From assembly GCA_963639765.1 (NCBI GenBank), contig CAVHXA010000011.1, positions 1-57,754 on the forward strand: 57,754 nucleotides of DNA, written 5' to 3'. Numbering within the stretch: the first letter of the stretch is position 1; the number at the start of each line of letters is the position of its first letter. The translations under genes and the position numbers were made by a program. Source of the DNA: Oscillospiraceae bacterium (GTDB lineage Bacteria > Bacillota > Clostridia > Oscillospirales > Oscillospiraceae). A model generated the notes under the pieces. The model did no database searches. It had not been told where the DNA came from and saw only the letters and a program-made list of their open reading frames with translations. Shown here one piece after another: positions 1-34,414 of the stretch.

Positions 1-74
1 TGGACACGTACAGTCACCTGTACCCCAACAAGCAGGTGGAGGTAGCCAGACAGCTTGACGGCATCATGCCGTGA
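1..74 (+). CDS. 3' end (last 24 codons, runs off the left edge) of a tyrosine recombinase / phage-type integrase
   Basis: Frame 3 is open from nt 3 to the TGA at 72-74. It translates to DTYSHLYPNKQVEVARQLDGIMP. The ...(T/M)DTYSHL... segment with the catalytic Tyr is the typical extreme C-terminus of Firmicutes site-specific integrases. It lies next to the guaA 3' end, a known integration site. Confidence 0.5.
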   Translation, partial: DTYSHLYPNKQVEVARQLDGIMP

Positions 75-80
75 GCCTCT

Positions 81-120
81 GGCTACAAAAAAAGCTTCAG
101 ATGTAGCCAATTTGTAGCCA
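81..120. repeat. inverted repeat GGCTACA(81-87)/TGTAGCC(102-108) plus tandem TGTAGCCA (102-109, 113-120) between integrase stop and guaA terminator; candidate att/arm-type site or integrase terminator
   Basis: Read directly from the sequence: 7-bp arms with a 14-nt A-rich loop, followed by a second copy of TGTAGCC 3 nt later. Confidence 0.3.
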
Positions 121-132
121 CTTAAAAAGTAA

Positions 133-172
133 AATCCCGAAAAACGCTGTAATATCAACGCTTTTCGGGATT
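133..172 (-). terminator. intrinsic terminator of guaA (minus strand)
   Basis: Arms AATCCCGAAAAACG (133-146) and CGCTTTTCGGGATT (159-172) pair with one mismatch. On the minus strand the hairpin is followed by TTTTACTTTTTAAG (complement of 119-132). It lies just downstream of the guaA stop at 190. Confidence 0.5.
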
Positions 173-189
173 CGGATAACACTAAATAT

Positions 190-1500
190 TTATTCCCACT
201 CGATGGTTCCGGTTGGCTTGGGAGTCAGGTCATACAGGACCCGGTTAACGCCGGGAACTTCGCTTGTGATACGCTGGGTGATGCGCTTCATTAACGGCCA
301 GGGGAGCTCTTCTACGGTGGCAGTCATCGCGTCGATCGTGTTGACAGCACGGATAATTACCGGCCACTCGTAGGCACGCTTGTTGTCTTTTACGCCTGTG
401 GAGCGGTAGTCCGGAACAATGGTAAAATACTGCCATACCTTGCCGCGAAGACCGGCAATTTCGAATTCTTCACGAAGAATGGCATCAGACTCACGAACGG
501 CCTGAAGACGGTCTCGCGTAATAGCACCGGTGCAGCGCACGCCCAGACCGGGCCCGGGGAAGGGCTGGCGATAAACCATGGAATCGGGCAGGCCCAACGC
601 GGCGCCAACGGCACGGACCTCGTCTTTAAAGAGCATCTTCAGAGGTTCAACGAGCGCAAAGTCAAAGTGCTCCGGCATGCCGCCGACATTGTGGTGAGAT
701 TTGATTACGCCGACCGTTTTTGTTCCGCTTTCAAGAATGTCGGGGTATATGGTACCCTGAGCCAGAAAGTGAATGCCCTCAAGTTTGTCTGCTTCTTCCT
801 GGAATACATCAATAAATTCGGCACCGATGATTTTGCGCTTTTTCTCCGGGTCACTTACGCCGGACAGTTTATCCAGAAAGCGATCGGTTGCATCTACATA
901 GATCAGATTGGCACCAAGCTGCTCACGGAAAACGCGAATAACCTGTTCAGGTTCGCCCTTGCGCAAAAGGCCGTGATTTACGTGAACACAGGTGAGCCTG
1001 TCGCCGACAGCACGAATCAGGAGCGCAGCCACAACAGAAGAATCCACACCACCCGACAGCGCAAGCAGTACTCTTCCACTGCCAACCTGCTGCCGGATTA
1101 TTTCAATCTGGTCTGCAATAAAATGCTCTGTGCTCCAGTTTTTCTGCGCACCGCAGCGGTCAAAGAGAAAGGCACTCAGAGCGTGGGCACGTTCTGCCTC
1201 GTCGGACGGCCAGACTGCCAGCGTTTCACAGCGATTTGCAGCAGCCGGATGATCTACGGCCAGAACCGGCAGACCGCATGTGTATATTTCCTCGCATACG
1301 TCAATGGAAACACCGTTTATCACCCGGTTTTTTCCACCGTTGAGGATAACACCCTTTACGTTGGGCAGTGCTTTCAGCTGCTCGGCTGTGATATCGTGGG
1401 CATGTATTTCAGAATAAACACCCAGGGCACGGATTTCTCTGGCCAGAATCGCATTTTTCTCGCTGCCCAGATCCAGAATCAGAATCATATCCTGCTGCAT
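190..1500 (-). CDS. guaA: GMP synthase (ATP pyrophosphatase domain intact; N-terminal glutamine amidotransferase domain truncated/degenerate)
   Basis: PP-loop SGGVDSS is present. The C-terminus ...PKPTGTIEWE matches the canonical GuaA end. The N-terminus ILILDLGS...GVYSEIHAHD aligns with the GuaA GATase start. The GxCxGxQ catalytic block is replaced by LPVLAVDHPAAAN, and about 80 aa including the His/Glu region are absent. Confidence 0.9.
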   Translation of the reverse strand: MQQDMILILDLGSEKNAILAREIRALGVYSEIHAHDITAEQLKALPNVKGVILNGGKNRVINGVSIDVCEEIYTCGLPVLAVDHPAAANRCETLAVWPSDEAERAHALSAFLFDRCGAQKNWSTEHFIADQIEIIRQQVGSGRVLLALSGGVDSSVVAALLIRAVGDRLTCVHVNHGLLRKGEPEQVIRVFREQLGANLIYVDATDRFLDKLSGVSDPEKKRKIIGAEFIDVFQEEADKLEGIHFLAQGTIYPDILESGTKTVGVIKSHHNVGGMPEHFDFALVEPLKMLFKDEVRAVGAALGLPDSMVYRQPFPGPGLGVRCTGAITRDRLQAVRESDAILREEFEIAGLRGKVWQYFTIVPDYRSTGVKDNKRAYEWPVIIRAVNTIDAMTATVEELPWPLMKRITQRITSEVPGVNRVLYDLTPKPTGTIEWE

Positions 1501-1609
1501 AGTTTTGCCTCCACCTCCCGGATCGCCCGGGATTATTTGCTGTCTCGCTCAGATTTTATGGTACACGCTAATATCGAAAAAGTCAATTTTCAGATGTCGG
1601 AGAAAGACG

Positions 1610-9123: not shown

Positions 9124-9993
9124 TTACAGGCCTCTGGCCCACTCACTGCGAATGCCGACGGTTCCGTGAATGGCCCCGTCCAGCAGAGCCAGAAGCCTTT
9201 CCCGATCCTGCTTCAGAGTGCCCTTTATCGGAAGATAATTTGAGGCGTGATCGCTCGTGAAATGCAGGTTGTCGTAATCGATGGCCGCGACGAGATCCCG
9301 GGTTTCCTGCAGACTTTCTTTGGCACTCAATACGGAAAAGCTGCCGGATACAACCTCCTGATAGAGCTTTGTTCCGCGTACGGGCGTGTAGTTCATGCTC
9401 GACAGATGTTGCGGCTGCATGGCGTTGATGATCTGAGCAGTTTTCTGAATGTGCTGTGCAGAGCCGTCACGCCCGCCAAGGCCGATGAGGATGATCCCCC
9501 ACAGGTCAATAGCAGCTTCTTTTAGACGCAGACCGGCCTGCAGCATCTGTGCAGCGGTTACACCTTTGTTTGTGTGTAAAAGCACGGCATCATCGCCGGA
9601 CTCAATACCAAGATAGGCCCGATCAAGGCCGGCTGCGTGAATTTCCTGCAGTTCCTGCAGAGATTTCGACAGCGTGCTTTTCGGACCGGCGTAAGTCGAA
9701 ATCAGACGGGCCTTTGGGAACCATTTTTTCAGCTCCTCGAGCACGCGAATCAGATCTGCGGTTGGCATGACAATCGGATCGCCATCTGCAATAAAGATTT
9801 TTTCGTATCCGCGATACATACAGGCTGCCTCACGGATATCGGCAAGAATCTCTTCTGTAGGCTTGATATAAAAGCGCTTGCCTTTATACATCCCGCAAAA
9901 AGTACAGCCATTATGGCTGCAGCCGACTGTAGCCTGCAGGATAAAGCTTCTTGCTTCACCGGGTGGACGATAGACCGGTTCGACATATTCCAT
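9124..9993 (-). CDS. radical SAM protein, Elp3/YhcC-like (TIGR01212-type)
   Basis: The CSHNGCTFC cluster (GCTFC as in YhcC), then ...IFIADGDPIV... and a TIM-barrel region. The start is placed at ATG 9993 (MEYVEP) with an AAAGGA RBS. The called ORF begins at GTG 10032. Confidence 0.75.
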   Translation of the reverse strand: MEYVEPVYRPPGEARSFILQATVGCSHNGCTFCGMYKGKRFYIKPTEEILADIREAACMYRGYEKIFIADGDPIVMPTADLIRVLEELKKWFPKARLISTYAGPKSTLSKSLQELQEIHAAGLDRAYLGIESGDDAVLLHTNKGVTAAQMLQAGLRLKEAAIDLWGIILIGLGGRDGSAQHIQKTAQIINAMQPQHLSSMNYTPVRGTKLYQEVVSGSFSVLSAKESLQETRDLVAAIDYDNLHFTSDHASNYLPIKGTLKQDRERLLALLDGAIHGTVGIRSEWARGL

Positions 9994-16698: not shown

Positions 16699-17496
16699 CT
16701 AGAGCTGCGGAAAGGCCGGAGATTGTTTTTGATTTTTTTGATTTTTCTGATAGATCAGACGAAGACCCTTTAGGACGAGATTGCTGTCTTCGATGATGCT
16801 TCGGCGGCAATGGGGAATAACCAGGCCGGCCGTTTCACCGGTGGCAATTACGGTAGCCTGCATACCCAATTCGTCTTCGACCCGGTTGATCATGCCGTCG
16901 ATCATGCTTGCTGCTCCGAAGACCACACCGGATCGCATACAGTCTGCGGTATTGGTGGCAATCACATTTTTTGGGGCCTGTACGGTGATACCGGGCAGCT
17001 GGGAAGTTTCCTCCCGCAGGGCAGTCAGACTTACACGAATCCCGGGAGCAATCATGCCGCCGAGAAATTTGCCGCTGCTGTCTACCACGGAAAACACCGT
17101 GGCTGTTCCCATATCTATCACAATCAACGGTTTTTTGTATTCTGCCACGGCGGCAACTGCATTTACGGCAAGATCACTGCCAAGCTGACCGGGATTGTCG
17201 ATGGTAATATTCAACCCTGTTTTGATGCCGGGACCGACCACAAGTGCTCGAAGACCGGTGAGCTTTTCGATGGCGGACTGTATAACGCTGTTAAGCTGTG
17301 GAACCACACTGGAAATAATGGCCCCGGTAATGGCACAGTCTGCTCCATGCAGAACCAGCAGACTGTGAAAGTCGATGGCATATTCGTCCGAAGTCTTCTG
17401 AATGCGGGTTTCGAGGTGTGCTTTAAAGCAGACGTCTGTTTCACCGAGTCCGCCCATTGTAATAAAGGTGTTGCCGACATCCAACGCCAGCAGCAT
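16699..17496 (-). CDS. coaX: type III pantothenate kinase
   Basis: N-terminal LALDVGNT and the ASKHA fold motifs (IVIDMGTATV, GGMIAPG). 265 aa. Confidence 0.9.
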   Translation of the reverse strand: MLLALDVGNTFITMGGLGETDVCFKAHLETRIQKTSDEYAIDFHSLLVLHGADCAITGAIISSVVPQLNSVIQSAIEKLTGLRALVVGPGIKTGLNITIDNPGQLGSDLAVNAVAAVAEYKKPLIVIDMGTATVFSVVDSSGKFLGGMIAPGIRVSLTALREETSQLPGITVQAPKNVIATNTADCMRSGVVFGAASMIDGMINRVEDELGMQATVIATGETAGLVIPHCRRSIIEDSNLVLKGLRLIYQKNQKNQKQSPAFPQL

Positions 17497-17509
17497 GATG
17501 ATACCTCCT

Positions 17510-17950
17510 TCAGAACAACAGAATCAATCCGACAAGAGCAGCTGCAGCACCCACACAAATGGTGAGAATGGGCGTGAGCAGGGGATATTCCTGATAATAA
17601 ATCAGGCAATCCTCCGGATGATCGGGATTGATCATGATGTTGACAGTTACATCGGTCGGCCGCTGATCGGCCTCAAAAAGCTGATGGGCCGTGGTTTTTT
17701 CGTAGACTTTTTCGTTAAACCGGTATTGAAAAACGGGATAGAACACCCTCTGACTGATGGTCTGTGTACCTTCTTTGGTGGTTTCATAGGTTTCTTCATA
17801 GCCGGTGAGCGTGGCAACAGCACGGCCTGTATAGGGCCTGCGATGCAGCAGCTGCCGCAGCAGCAGGATGAGTCCGGTCAGAGCACACAGACTGCCCAGA
17901 GCCACAAGCACCAGACGATAGTCTATTACCATTGCGTTGATCTGATTCAT
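17510..17950 (-). CDS. small two-TM membrane protein (DUF3592-like)
   Basis: TM helices at both ends flank a ~90-aa soluble segment. Start at ATG 17950 (MNQINAMV) with an AAGGAG RBS. Confidence 0.55.
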   Translation of the reverse strand: MNQINAMVIDYRLVLVALGSLCALTGLILLLRQLLHRRPYTGRAVATLTGYEETYETTKEGTQTISQRVFYPVFQYRFNEKVYEKTTAHQLFEADQRPTDVTVNIMINPDHPEDCLIYYQEYPLLTPILTICVGAAAALVGLILLF

Positions 17951-31133: not shown

Positions 31134-31991
31134 ATGCCTGAGATCAAGCGTTATAACTTTGACGATGTTGCCCGGGCTCTGGGTGCGAACGTCCAGCCCC
31201 GGGGCGGCGGTGCACCCGCCGGCGGACAGGGTGGTCCCGGAGGACCCGGCGGTGCTCCCGGCGGCCCCGGTGGTCCCGGCGGCCCCGGTGGTCCCGGCGG
31301 TCCCGGCGGTCCCGGCGGACCCGGCGGCCCCGGAGGACCCGGCGGCGGACAGGGTGGCCCCGGTGGCCCGGGAGGCCCTGGCGGCAAGGGCGGTATGCCT
31401 GCCGGACTGACAGCCAAGTTTGACCCGAAGGGCGTACGAAACACCGACGTTCGCATGGCTGAAACGTGGCCGGTCGAGCGTGCGCTGAAGCTGTATGACT
31501 ACTTCAAGGAAGAAGCCGAAAAGGGAACGATACTCGAGTTTGAGGGACATGCTTCCTGCTGGGCAACTATGGCTTTGTGCGCCAGACTTCCCAAAAACCA
31601 GGTCAAGCTCTACATGCCCCCGTTCCGCAAAAGCCTGGATCTGGCTCCTTTCCAGATCAGCGAGAAACTGACCGACGGTCAGATGTGTGACTACAGAATC
31701 CGCGAAGAGGGCGACGACATCTATCTTGAAGTTGTTCTGAGCGGAGACGGGAACCCTGACCCCTTTGCGGTGGCCTTTGCCGATACCACGGCTCCTGCTT
31801 TGCCCGCTGGGAAAAATATATATGTAAATCTATACGGGAACCACTATCTGCCCTGCTTCTGCCTGCCCTGGACCTATCCGGACTGCAAGACCATGTATAT
31901 GTGCACTCCCGTAGAAACCCATTGTGTCCTGTCCAATGACCCCAACGTAAAGGTGGGAGACGAGGGCAAGAACCCGTTTAAGGAGGACTGA
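31134..31991 (+). CDS. hypothetical protein with N-terminal (Gly-Gly-Pro)n low-complexity tract and Cys-rich C-terminus
   Basis: AGGAGG RBS. aa 24-87 are GG(P/Q/A/K) triplets. The ~200-aa C-terminal part ends LPCFCLPWTYPDCKTMYMCTPVETHC and has no recognisable family. Confidence 0.7.
   Translation: MPEIKRYNFDDVARALGANVQPRGGGAPAGGQGGPGGPGGAPGGPGGPGGPGGPGGPGGPGGPGGPGGPGGGQGGPGGPGGPGGKGGMPAGLTAKFDPKGVRNTDVRMAETWPVERALKLYDYFKEEAEKGTILEFEGHASCWATMALCARLPKNQVKLYMPPFRKSLDLAPFQISEKLTDGQMCDYRIREEGDDIYLEVVLSGDGNPDPFAVAFADTTAPALPAGKNIYVNLYGNHYLPCFCLPWTYPDCKTMYMCTPVETHCVLSNDPNVKVGDEGKNPFKED
31203..31394 (+). repeat. degenerate 9-nt tandem DNA repeat (ggYcccggY) encoding (GGP)n
   Basis: Read directly: ggtcccggaggacccggcggtgctcccggcggccccggtggtcccggc... 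The antisense shadow ORF reads PPGPPGPP. Confidence 0.85.
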
Positions 31992-31993
31992 GC

Positions 31994-32719
31994 GTGAAAT
32001 ACTCTTACACCCCCCAGCAATTGATTGATCGCTGCCTGATGATCCGGGAAGCCCAGAATGTGGTAGGCAGCGCACTGCACTACGATATGCTGGCGAAATT
32101 CGATGAAATTTTCGACAAATTCTGGGCAAAGAATGAGCCTGTCTGCTTTGGTCAGAACGATGGCTATTTCCAGGGCGCTGAGGCTGTGAAGGCCTATTAC
32201 GCCAAGAAGACGGAAAATGCCAGAATCGTGACCAGATTCCTTATGGAAAAGTGGCCGGACAAATTCAAGGACATGACTGAGGCCGAGGCCTACGGTGCCG
32301 GCTATGTAAAGGGCAACGACTTCCATACCCCTATCATTGAGGTAGCAGAGGATATGAAGTCCGTCAAGTGCCTGTTCCAGGTTCAGTCTGCCAATACCAA
32401 CATCACCCCCAAGGGCCCGCTGAGCTATTGGAATCTCAGCTATCTGGGCGTGGATCTGGTTTTGGAAAATGACGAGCTGAAGATCAAGAATATGCTGTGG
32501 GTCAACGACATCGACCATCCGGTGGCTGAGCCATGGACCGAACCTACAAAGTTCGAGGATCTTCCTGAGTTTGCAGCCCTGACAAAGATCGAACAGCCAA
32601 AGCCCAATGTTCCCCAGGAGCTTTTGGCGGCTTACTATCCCGGCCGTCCCTTCCCCAAGTATCCTGCCATGCCCGAGCCCTATACCACCCTGGCTGAGAC
32701 ATTCAGCTATGGCCTTTGA
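31994..32719 (+). CDS. NTF2/SnoaL-like fold protein, paralog 1 of 3 (GTG start)
   Basis: AGGAGG RBS 7 nt before GTG 31994. Shares with the next two genes a ~130-aa core (FWxK ... (V/I)(K/R)AYY ... GW/LKI(K/W)...). C-terminal Pro-rich tail. Confidence 0.65.
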   Translation: MKYSYTPQQLIDRCLMIREAQNVVGSALHYDMLAKFDEIFDKFWAKNEPVCFGQNDGYFQGAEAVKAYYAKKTENARIVTRFLMEKWPDKFKDMTEAEAYGAGYVKGNDFHTPIIEVAEDMKSVKCLFQVQSANTNITPKGPLSYWNLSYLGVDLVLENDELKIKNMLWVNDIDHPVAEPWTEPTKFEDLPEFAALTKIEQPKPNVPQELLAAYYPGRPFPKYPAMPEPYTTLAETFSYGL

Positions 32720-32736
32720 GAAAGGAGTTGACCTTG

Positions 32737-33462
32737 ATGTACAGCAAAGCAACGGATTTCTCCAAGTCTATTCAGGCCGAGCGGGCCTATGACTACGAGG
32801 AGATCAAAAAGATCATGGCCAAGCGTGCCTATCTCATGAGCACCAACCGTCGGGCAGAGGAGCTGGACACCCTCTGGACGAAAGAGCACAAGGACACCGC
32901 ATCCTATGGACGGAACTGGGGCTACTATGTTGGGCTGGACCAGATCCGGGCCTACTATGTGGATAAAAACTCCTTCGGCGGCGACGGAACAGCTATCTGC
33001 CACCCCTTCACCACCCACAAGATCAATATTGCAGACGATGGGAAGACCGCACAGGTAACCTGGTACTCCATCGGCTATGAGATCGTTAAAACCGACGACG
33101 GCTTTACCGGCTATTGGGACAACCAGCGCTGCGGCTGTGACCTTATCTTGGAGGCTGATGGCTGGAAGATCTGGCACTATTTCGCCGGCACCGACTTCTG
33201 TGTGGAGCCCGGCTACAAATATGCCGACCTGGATGTCTTTACCTACACACCTGTAGAGGCCATTCCCAAAGCAGAGTTCGGCACTCCCACGGTAGCTATG
33301 AACGCCTACAACTGCGACTATAACTATTATATGTATCCAACCATCACCCGTGAGCATGCCACCTTTAAGGATACCGTGAGCAACGGTCCTGAGGGCAACC
33401 CCAAGTTCACAGGCTTCTGGAAGCCCCACACTGGCAACTGGGAACCCCATACCGAAGGCTGA
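32737..33462 (+). CDS. NTF2/SnoaL-like fold protein, paralog 2 of 3
   Basis: AAAGGAG RBS. LDQIRAYYVDKNS ... ADGWKIWHYF. Tyr/Asn-rich C-terminal tail. Confidence 0.65.
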   Translation: MYSKATDFSKSIQAERAYDYEEIKKIMAKRAYLMSTNRRAEELDTLWTKEHKDTASYGRNWGYYVGLDQIRAYYVDKNSFGGDGTAICHPFTTHKINIADDGKTAQVTWYSIGYEIVKTDDGFTGYWDNQRCGCDLILEADGWKIWHYFAGTDFCVEPGYKYADLDVFTYTPVEAIPKAEFGTPTVAMNAYNCDYNYYMYPTITREHATFKDTVSNGPEGNPKFTGFWKPHTGNWEPHTEG

Positions 33463-33475
33463 GGAGGCGAAGAGA

Positions 33476-34414
33476 ATGAATAAGAACCTGGATTTTGACA
33501 CCAAGCTTGCCATTGTACAAGCTGGACAGGCAGTTGAGAACGTCCACAGCTGGCATGCCATCCTGCATGCCGGCGGCCATACCACAGAGGAAGTAGAGAC
33601 CTTCTGGAGCAAGTATCGGGATGATCTGTACTGGGGCTACAACATGGCAGGCAAGTACGGCCGCGACGAGGTTGTCGAGGGCTGGTGTAACGGCCTGGAG
33701 GGCGGCGCCTATGGTATGTACGCCCGGATGAACGAGCTGTATCCCGAAACAATCGGTATGGATCCGCTGCCTTTGAGCGAATACTCTCTGCACGCTGTGG
33801 GCCTGCCCGTGGTAGAGATCGGTCGTGATCTGAAGACAGCTCGTGCTGTGTTCTACTCCACTGGCATGCTCTGCCGGAACATTGCCACCAACGGCAAGAA
33901 GATGGCTGTTTGGATGCTCGAACGCTATGGCGAGGATTACGTTTTGGAAGACGGCTACTGGAAGATCCTTCATGAATGCGTGCTCAACGACTCCGGCGGC
34001 GCCCAGGATGTGACGAACTTTGGCTGGGATGCCTATCAGAAAATGCTGAATCCCGGTATGGGCCGCGGCCCCGGTGGCGGTCAGGGCGGACCCGGCGGCA
34101 AGGGCGGACCAGGCGGCCCAGGCGGTCAGGGTGGACCCGGTGGTCCCGGCGGCCAGGGTGGACCCGGTGGTCCCGGTGGCCAGGGAGGTCCCGGCGCTGC
34201 TCCCAACGGCAAGCAGTTTGACAAGAAAGCCTATTCCAAGATGGGTGCCGGAAGCGGCGCCGGAATGGGCAGCATGCCCGGTGCCCACATTACCTACACA
34301 CCTACCCAGACCCCCCAGGACTCTACGCCTCTTCCCGAGCCCTTCGAGACCCTGGACTTTGTAAAGACCCACTATGTTGTTGGTCTGGGAGAAAACAAGG
34401 GCGCAAAGCGCTGA
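33476..34414 (+). CDS. NTF2/SnoaL-like fold protein, paralog 3 of 3, with C-terminal (Gly-Gly-Pro/Gln)n tract and tail
   Basis: EDGYWKILHECV core. aa 196-240 are GG(P/Q/K) triplets, then a ~70-aa tail. Confidence 0.7.
   Translation: MNKNLDFDTKLAIVQAGQAVENVHSWHAILHAGGHTTEEVETFWSKYRDDLYWGYNMAGKYGRDEVVEGWCNGLEGGAYGMYARMNELYPETIGMDPLPLSEYSLHAVGLPVVEIGRDLKTARAVFYSTGMLCRNIATNGKKMAVWMLERYGEDYVLEDGYWKILHECVLNDSGGAQDVTNFGWDAYQKMLNPGMGRGPGGGQGGPGGKGGPGGPGGQGGPGGPGGQGGPGGPGGQGGPGAAPNGKQFDKKAYSKMGAGSGAGMGSMPGAHITYTPTQTPQDSTPLPEPFETLDFVKTHYVVGLGENKGAKR
34061..34195 (+). repeat. second degenerate 9-nt tandem repeat encoding (GGP/GGQ)n, direct repeat of the 31203-31394 tract
   Basis: ggacccggtggtcccggcggccagggtggacccggtggtcccggtggccaggga... 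Confidence 0.85.

Follow-up and report, generated by a model that had tools for sequence, protein, structure and literature searches.

The window analysed here, a stretch of 57,754 nucleotides from an Oscillospiraceae bacterium (GenBank assembly GCA_963639765.1, contig CAVHXA010000011.1), carries a guaA gene on the reverse strand close to its left end. GMP (guanosine monophosphate) synthetase, the product of guaA, is a textbook glutamine amidotransferase (GATase). The protein encoded in the window combines a complete synthetase part with only half of the GATase fold, and it belongs to a family of proteins of 429-442 aa that is called here 'short GuaA'. The short GuaA proteins constitute a widespread and conserved family, which is found mostly in gut Clostridia, together with Bacteroidales and a few other lineages. 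The gene is organized as follows.

190-1500, reverse strand: coding sequence of the short guaA, 436 aa plus stop codon, one uninterrupted open reading frame (ORF) in the ORF list, starting with MQQDMILILDLG.
1249-1500, reverse strand: aa 1-84, vestigial N-terminal half of a class-I GATase fold (beta1-beta4 and helix alpha1), up to the former nucleophile elbow.
1249-1254, reverse strand: Asp83-His84, which the alignment puts at the place of the catalytic Cys86-Tyr87 of E. coli GuaA.
1186-1248, reverse strand: aa 85-105, a variable linker that cannot be aligned to canonical GuaA, in place of ~100 canonical GATase residues including the His/Glu loop.
1081-1185, reverse strand: aa 106-140, the last GATase helix and the interdomain junction, both kept and aligning to E. 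coli residues 193-226.
193-1080, reverse strand: aa 141-436, ATP pyrophosphatase (ATPPase) and C-terminal dimerisation / xanthosine monophosphate (XMP)-binding domain, catalytically complete as judged by profile matches and alignment.

A preliminary description, made from the sequence alone, had proposed that the GATase domain is truncated and without its triad while the synthetase is intact, and that the reading frame is continuous, with no frameshift. Both proposals hold for the 436-aa uninterrupted ORF, and the manual alignment behind the first proved right throughout when compared with Pfam, NCBIfam and the 1GPM and MAFFT alignments. The Pfam GATase profile is matched only at aa 7-82, which corresponds to profile positions 1-78 out of 190, with 22.6 bits against a cut-off of 22.8, and the NCBIfam profile guaA_Nterm (TIGR00888) scores 46 bits against a cut-off of 172. 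In the alignment with E. coli GuaA (1GPM), residues 4-84 of the query correspond to E. coli residues 8-87, and residues 107-436 to E. coli residues 193-525. The MAFFT alignment, comprising E. coli GuaA (annotated K-12 record), six canonical Firmicute GuaA and 74 short forms, places Asp83 at E. coli Cys86 and His84 at E. coli Tyr87, and leaves ~20 unalignable residues of the window protein where E. coli has residues ~88-190, including His181 and Glu183. The alignment picks up again at the last GATase helix, where LSAFLFDRCGAQKNW corresponds to E. coli MLERFVRDICQCEALW. Both the complete class-I GATase domain (about 190-200 aa) and the Cys-His-Glu triad are absent from the window protein, and the segment that carries the His and the Glu is missing in all family members compared. 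Since ~100 GATase residues including His181 and Glu183 are deleted and Cys86 is replaced, usually by Asp, hydrolysis of glutamine by the triad mechanism should be impossible for the short form; with half of the fold gone as well, the alignments show what is predicted to be a dead glutaminase.

The synthetase part scores 448 bits with the NCBIfam profile guaA_Cterm (TIGR00884; cut-off 339, aa 126-436) and 124 bits with PF00958 (GMP synthase C-terminal domain, aa 344-435), and PP-loop ATPase signals were also found in Pfam. The short and the canonical sequences all agree in 97 alignment columns. These columns include the P-loop S149-S155 (SGGVDSS), the residues D254, E257 and S258 of the alpha11 DxxES motif (D254-ILES-258 in the window protein), the lid residues K267, H269, H270 and N271 (I266-KSHHN-271), the alpha12 residues K292, D293, E294 and R296 (K292-DEVR-296), and the residues K428, P429, T432 and E434 of the C-terminal XMP-binding loop (K428-PTGTIEWE). 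The second Pro of the KPP motif in this loop is often lost, being T, V, S, C, I or P within the family. In the Plasmodium enzyme, mutagenesis has shown that these motif residues bind ATP and XMP, form adenyl-XMP and promote the attack by ammonia (bioRxiv 10.1101/808618). The alignment shows that the predicted synthetase has lost none of the residues that are known to be required for binding ATP and XMP, for forming adenyl-XMP or for the attack by ammonia.

What the preliminary description took for a peculiarity of this genome turned out to be one member of a large family. The family is recognised by the signature M(Q/K)QDMI..LDLGS...ARxIRxLGVYSEI...NGGxN, by the deletion of E. coli residues ~88-190 and by the motif CVHVNHG, all of which are present in the window protein. 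In a first homology search more than 115 clusters were found with 74-86% identity to the window protein, all of 429-436 aa save a few longer gene calls; these, when inspected, are explained by an upstream start, by a read-through C-terminus or, in two cases, by internal duplications. The latter two, P0002 (539 aa) and P0008 (481 aa) from ENA/NCBI assemblies, were considered as possible relatives with an intact GATase domain and rejected, as in both of them part of the ATPPase is duplicated internally, exactly and in tandem; these duplications are therefore probably assembly artefacts that inflate the length, and such proteins could pass for full-length GuaA. When the N-terminal 137 aa were compared with 1.84 billion cluster representatives, 270 matches were obtained at E <= 1e-10, and members with as little as about 41% identity still have the short architecture. 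One genome per GTDB species was also scanned with the stub pattern [IV]Rx[LM]GVY[ST]EI, which revealed at least 598 species-representative genome stretches encoding a relative, among 600 matches listed. Unless noted otherwise, the counts of loci given below refer to the best 80 of these at least 598 stretches, which include 73 complete copies of the gene. Whether relatives share the deletion was a check already suggested in the preliminary description: all 73 complete copies do, with an intact frame and a length of 429-442 aa. The feature is thus not due to chance or to a sequencing error, because all of these homologues come from other genomes.

The named hosts belong mainly to the Oscillospiraceae, Acutalibacteraceae, Ruminococcaceae and Lachnospiraceae. 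Carriers known as isolates are Flavonifractor sp. An82, Clostridiales bacterium CCNA10 (complete genome), Anaerotruncus massiliensis, Bianquea renquensis, Faecalicatena contorta and Lientehia hominis, and further carriers comprise a tight group of Bacteroidales metagenome-assembled genomes (MAGs), one Kiritimatiellae MAG and the bacillus Caryophanon tenue. Wherever the title of the record states a source, this is gut, rumen or faeces. Thousands of metagenomic sequences share the short architecture, and one exact sequence is found on at least 1000 contigs.

Conservation is uneven along the remnant. The residues D10, L11, G12, A20, R21, R24, G27, V28, Y29, E31, G63 and P78 are invariant across diverse family members, and F111, C116 and W122 in the segment of the last helix and junction are conserved; the linker between these two parts differs in length within the family, with a majority-residue frequency of 0.48. 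Position 83 is occupied by Asp in 55 of 73 family members, by Gly in 10, Glu in four, Cys in two, and Asn and Ser in one each, while position 84 is His in all 73 genomic copies and also Tyr, Phe or Cys in remoter metagenomic members. Asp83-His84 was considered as a substitute catalytic dyad and rejected on account of this variation at position 83 in close members and at position 84 in distant ones. Ratios of nonsynonymous to synonymous substitution (dN/dS) were calculated according to Nei and Gojobori for 419 pairs with 0.15 < dS < 1.6, and amount to about 0.18 for the stub (aa 1-84), about 0.55 for the linker (aa 85-105), about 0.21 for the last GATase helix and junction, and about 0.10 for the synthetase. 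The N-terminal stub is under purifying selection. The gene is not decaying, because it is kept in at least 598 species and because of the low dN/dS of its stub, so that of the 'decaying paralog' named in the preliminary description only the second word stands.

That word is supported by the location of canonical guaA genes, which were identified by a tblastn search with the segment deleted from the short form (E. coli aa 86-195) against the 80 loci. A canonical guaA (509-516 aa, with GICYG and HPE motifs) is located within 10 kb of the short gene in six of the 80 loci, and therefore the short form is a paralogue; the chance expectation is ~0.35, for one canonical copy placed at random in 3 Mb and ~1.04 Mb of flanks. 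The other 74 loci have no canonical copy nearby. In Anaerotruncus massiliensis (locus L034, 8433-11305), the canonical gene (510 aa) ends 35 nt before the short guaA, and the two overlap if an upstream start at 9956 is used, which suggests an operon of two paralogues. In Caryophanon tenue (L076), the short gene comes first and the canonical guaA follows after ~170 nt; 180 nt 5' of the short gene lies a purine riboswitch (RF00167, 78 bits), and this is the only one of the loci checked with an Rfam match. Four further genomes have their canonical guaA within 10 kb of the short gene. No GATase gene and no second guaA were found within the 57.7-kb window, and no stand-alone GuaA-type GATase within 10 kb in any of the 80 related loci. 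A conserved gene neighbourhood was not found either: no neighbour family occurs in more than nine of 81 loci, the commonest being purC, and purC, purF and purA are neighbours in several of them.

The ATPPase and dimerisation part was also used for a neighbour-joining tree. There the short forms all fall into a single short-branched clade that excludes the seven canonical GuaA, and the window protein lies inside this clade beside those of loci L003 and L007. For the pairs computed, the ATPPase part of the short forms is 70-76% identical to that of the window protein; its identity to the canonical copy from the same genome is 55-62%, and that to E. coli GuaA is 53-55%. The sequences from Bacteroidales cluster in a single subclade within those of Clostridia, which suggests horizontal transfer.

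The structure of the stub was considered with AlphaFold. Residues 1-125 are modelled as a compact b-a-b-a-b-a-b half-domain with a terminal helix, with confidence values (pLDDT) of 77-97 overall, 77-93 for the strands and helices of the half-domain and 88-97 for the helix 101-115. The model superposes on 7SBC and 1GPM with template modelling (TM) scores of 0.71-0.76, and a fold search yields only ordinary GMP synthetases. In canonical enzymes, the resting interface between the domains is formed mainly by GATase helix alpha1 with alpha11 and alpha12 of the ATPPase; within the alpha1 motif (K/R)(K/R)xRE, positions 1 and 4 form salt bridges to the alpha12 motif KD(D/E)V(K/R), position 2 touches the His/Glu catalytic loop, and the substitution K24L at position 1 halves the kcat of the NH4Cl-dependent synthesis (bioRxiv 10.1101/808618). 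Every short protein compared, however divergent, has arginine at positions 1 and 4 (R21 and R24), whereas position 2 is E, A, Q, D, K or W and position 5 is A, D, S, T, E or N. This is as expected if the contact with the synthetase is still needed and the glutaminase loop is gone. From this conservation we infer that the stub is probably a retained, non-catalytic structural clamp, whose helix alpha1 would still hold alpha11 and alpha12, the carriers of catalytic residues, by means of R21 and R24, which are predicted to touch D293 and E294.

Compared with the two-domain GuaA (EC 6.3.5.2; E. coli, 1GPM), the short form has the same order of parts and all synthetase catalytic motifs, its ATPPase and dimerisation domains are 52-55% identical to those of E. 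coli, and it keeps about the first 84 residues of the GATase fold with helix alpha1 and its two interface arginines. It differs by the lack of about 100 GATase residues, by its separate clade, and by the coexistence with a canonical copy in at least six genomes. Two features that define EC 6.3.5.2, the complete GATase domain and the catalytic triad, are missing, and glutamine-dependent formation of GMP is predicted to be absent. With NadE there is only an analogy, and no homology of the lost domain. NAD+ synthetases belong to the same N-type ATP pyrophosphatase superfamily, and NH3-dependent forms without a glutaminase domain exist beside glutamine-dependent relatives; the NH3-dependent NadE lacks the glutaminase domain altogether, and this domain is of the nitrilase type. 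The short GuaA, in contrast, has a halved class-I GATase of which a stump is retained. With the archaeal GuaAb (M. jannaschii 6JP9, P. horikoshii 2DPL) the short form shares the condition of a synthetase polypeptide without a glutaminase of its own, at 46-49% identity in structural alignment and sequence E-values of 1e-98 to 1e-102. The archaeal protein, however, has about 305 aa, no N-terminal remnant and a dedicated GATase partner gene, whereas a conserved GATase remnant of 125 residues is fused to the short form and no partner gene was found in the window or within 10 kb in the 80 loci. The archaeal ATPPase subunit alone makes GMP from NH4+ in vitro, according to a review. Two recent reviews of GMP synthetase describe only the two-domain and the two-subunit architectures, and one of them based its phylogeny on sequences that cover at least 80% of the canonical domains; a full-text search of the literature on ammonia-dependent GMP synthetase, guaA paralogues and guaA2 revealed no description of the short form.

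Around the gene, the following signals were found in the window.

1508-1519, reverse strand: Shine-Dalgarno-like GGGAGGTGGAGG, 8 nt 5' of the ATG, read from the sequence.
1558-1586, reverse strand: weak promoter-like TTGACT-17-TACCAT (9/12 matches in a consensus scan), in the 109-nt spacer between nrdR and guaA.
132-173, reverse strand: intrinsic-terminator-like hairpin with an 18-bp stem and a T run, starting 17 nt past the stop codon.

A comparable hairpin is present 3' of the homologue in locus L083. No Rfam match that might point to a riboswitch or another RNA control upstream was found in the window or in 20 other loci. An ORF of 326 aa on the forward strand (667-1647), antisense over most of guaA, is a shadow ORF and not a gene.

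The best explanation of these observations, which we regard as rather probable, is that the short GuaA is a widespread, conserved GMP synthetase paralogue that is glutaminase-dead, would use free ammonia and keeps its stub as a clamp. Its most likely origin is a single internal deletion that removed about 100 GATase residues from a two-domain guaA of the canonical kind; it would then have spread through gut-associated Clostridia and reached the Bacteroidales and a few further lineages. The protein would act as a homodimeric XMP aminase, in which ATP adenylates XMP and NH3 is taken directly from the cytoplasm, thereby making GMP synthesis independent of glutamine in gut habitats rich in ammonia; at least some genomes would use it beside the canonical glutamine-dependent GuaA. 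With a presumably dead glutaminase, an intact and constrained synthetase, a riboswitch in one genome and pur genes as neighbours, an ammonia-dependent XMP aminase is the most economical reading. It is also compatible with the finding that the ATPPase module does not need the GATase for its own work and takes external ammonia in vitro, as has been reported both for two-domain enzymes and for the archaeal ATPPase subunit (PMC10526850). Among the three alternatives that the preliminary description had offered, use of free ammonia is accordingly the best supported, as far as can be judged from sequence comparison. Several points weigh against it. Known GMP synthetases have a poor Km(NH4+) of 26-174 mM (GMP synthetase review), and an efficient ammonia enzyme would need adaptations, none of which we recognised in the sequence. 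Genes for ammonium transport or nitrogen regulation showed no conserved linkage with the short gene in the 81 loci, and the tandem or co-transcribed pairing with a canonical guaA in two genomes fits cooperation or a heteromer equally well. The tree that separates the clade is distance-based and contains just seven canonical sequences. Moreover, at four positions the 73 short forms all share one residue and the canonical GuaA share another (H173 for F259, N175 for D261, A391 for F480 and E397 for A486; CVHVNHG for canonical CVFVDxG, with the substitutions at about nt 976-984 and 310-330 of the window), and H173 and N175, beside the nucleotide site, could together with the loss of the second Pro mean an altered substrate or function.

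These fully conserved substitutions, all four of which lie near the nucleotide site, speak for a new role of the short protein, be it the amidation of another substrate, a regulatory or heterodimeric partnership with the canonical GuaA or a back-up insensitive to glutamine analogues, with the half-domain as a new binding module. The invariant His84 of the 73 genomic copies, a stub more conserved than a mere spacer needs, and a coexisting canonical copy that frees the short gene to diverge all fit such a role; against it, all known residues for binding XMP and ATP and for forming adenyl-XMP are invariant, the riboswitch and the purC, purF and purA neighbours point to purine and GMP synthesis, and Asp83-His84 is not conserved in more distant members, so that we give a new role a small chance. 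Of similarly modest standing is a more specific conjecture, in which the half-GATase stub would be a new functional module, for instance one that senses a ligand, gates the entry of NH3 into the adenyl-XMP site or binds canonical GuaA in a heteromer; gut anaerobes might then have a two-enzyme GMP synthesis responsive to nitrogen status, and the short forms would represent a new 'pseudo-amidotransferase' class of synthetases. That the short protein is instead the synthetase partner of a glutaminase acting in trans, which could be an independent class-I GATase of the archaeal GuaAa/GuaAb type or the canonical GuaA with its GATase domain, glutamine still being the nitrogen donor, is improbable in our view. 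Archaeal two-subunit GMP synthetases do exist and associate just transiently (review), the short gene adjoins or lies near a canonical guaA in the six genomes mentioned, and the alpha11 and alpha12 motifs that communicate with the GATase are intact. No candidate gene was found in the window or as a stand-alone GATase within 10 kb in the 80 loci, however, there is no conserved neighbour family, most loci (74/80) are without a canonical copy nearby, and the stub with its salt-bridging alpha1 arginines should fill the docking surface on alpha11 and alpha12. A trans-acting glutaminase is for these reasons not supported, and the same applies to the separate archaeal-type subunit of the preliminary description.

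The remaining two explanations carry very little weight compared with an ammonia-dependent paralogue. A decaying, non-functional copy, or pseudogene in the making, would account for the loss of the triad and of half a domain and for the canonical copy present in at least some genomes, but it is very improbable and effectively refuted by the intact frame in 73 of 73 complete homologues of different species, the dN/dS values of 0.10-0.18, the invariance of all catalytic synthetase residues, the gene's own ribosome-binding site and terminator, and the recurrence of the same deletion boundaries across at least 598 species. That the short domain arose in this contig through faulty assembly, of the kind obvious in P0002 and P0008, or through faulty sequencing has a negligible probability and is refuted, since the same architecture recurs in thousands of metagenomic sequences as well as in isolate or complete genomes (Flavonifractor sp. 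An82, CCNA10, Faecalicatena contorta, Anaerotruncus massiliensis and Caryophanon tenue).

Several further features of the loci deserve mention. The contig begins within the 3' end of a tyrosine integrase gene (window 3-71, forward strand, stop codon 72-74), whose tail DTYSHLYPNKQVEVARQLDGIMP, directly before the stop, matches the C-terminus of the integrase located just 3' of the short guaA in L083, where HTH (helix-turn-helix), AAA_25 and Mob_Pre genes follow. Between the guaA terminator and the integrase, window positions 74-130 and L083 have the repeats GTGGCTACA, TGGCTACA and TGTAGCCA in common, which could be arm-type sites. Integrase, XRE and mobilisation genes are located 3' of the short guaA in at least seven other loci, L034 among them, and based on these shared features the 3' flank of the short guaA seems to be an integration hot spot for mobilisable elements. 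The Caryophanon tenue locus contains two purine riboswitch aptamers (9719-9820 and 17410-17511, 78 bits each), the second of which precedes an ORF of 456 aa, and genes identified by eye as encoding an ammonium transporter, PII and an NH3-type NAD synthetase are found 4-9 kb upstream. Farther along the window (31134-34414, forward strand), four ORFs are located downstream of a divergent gene for an AraC-type regulator. Two of them are SnoaL-like and two have no Pfam match, and at least two contain long Gly/Pro-rich low-complexity tracts (GGPGGPGG...), an unusual combination.

The public names of the short proteins can be traced to profile matching. The full-length GuaA equivalog NF000848 is passed with 532 bits against a cut-off of 400 through aa 106-436 alone; because these C-terminal two thirds suffice, the whole family is automatically named glutamine-hydrolyzing despite the absent triad. 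Public labels read 'glutamine-hydrolyzing GMP synthase', with one member labelled 'NH(3)-dependent NAD(+) synthetase', and a second homology search, with a Bacteroidales member as query, yielded the automatic 'glutamine-hydrolyzing GMP synthase' labels only. Among curated names, Swiss-Prot may contain a 'putative GMP synthase 2' of Bacteroides. On the evidence of the domain comparison, this naming is a systematic annotation error, and as a consequence metabolic reconstructions may be wrong on the nitrogen donor and on gene redundancy. The short GuaA would represent a third natural architecture of GMP synthetase, a synthetase fused to a conserved half-domain without a triad, which occurs in hundreds of species from the gut as well as in metagenomic lineages of very high abundance. 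It would provide a natural experiment on what the GATase does for the synthetase beyond making ammonia, namely the alpha1-alpha12 clamp. As a candidate obligate ammonia-dependent GMP synthetase, it would also bear on drugs or toxins aimed at the GATase cysteine and on the nitrogen economy and the purine supply of gut anaerobes.

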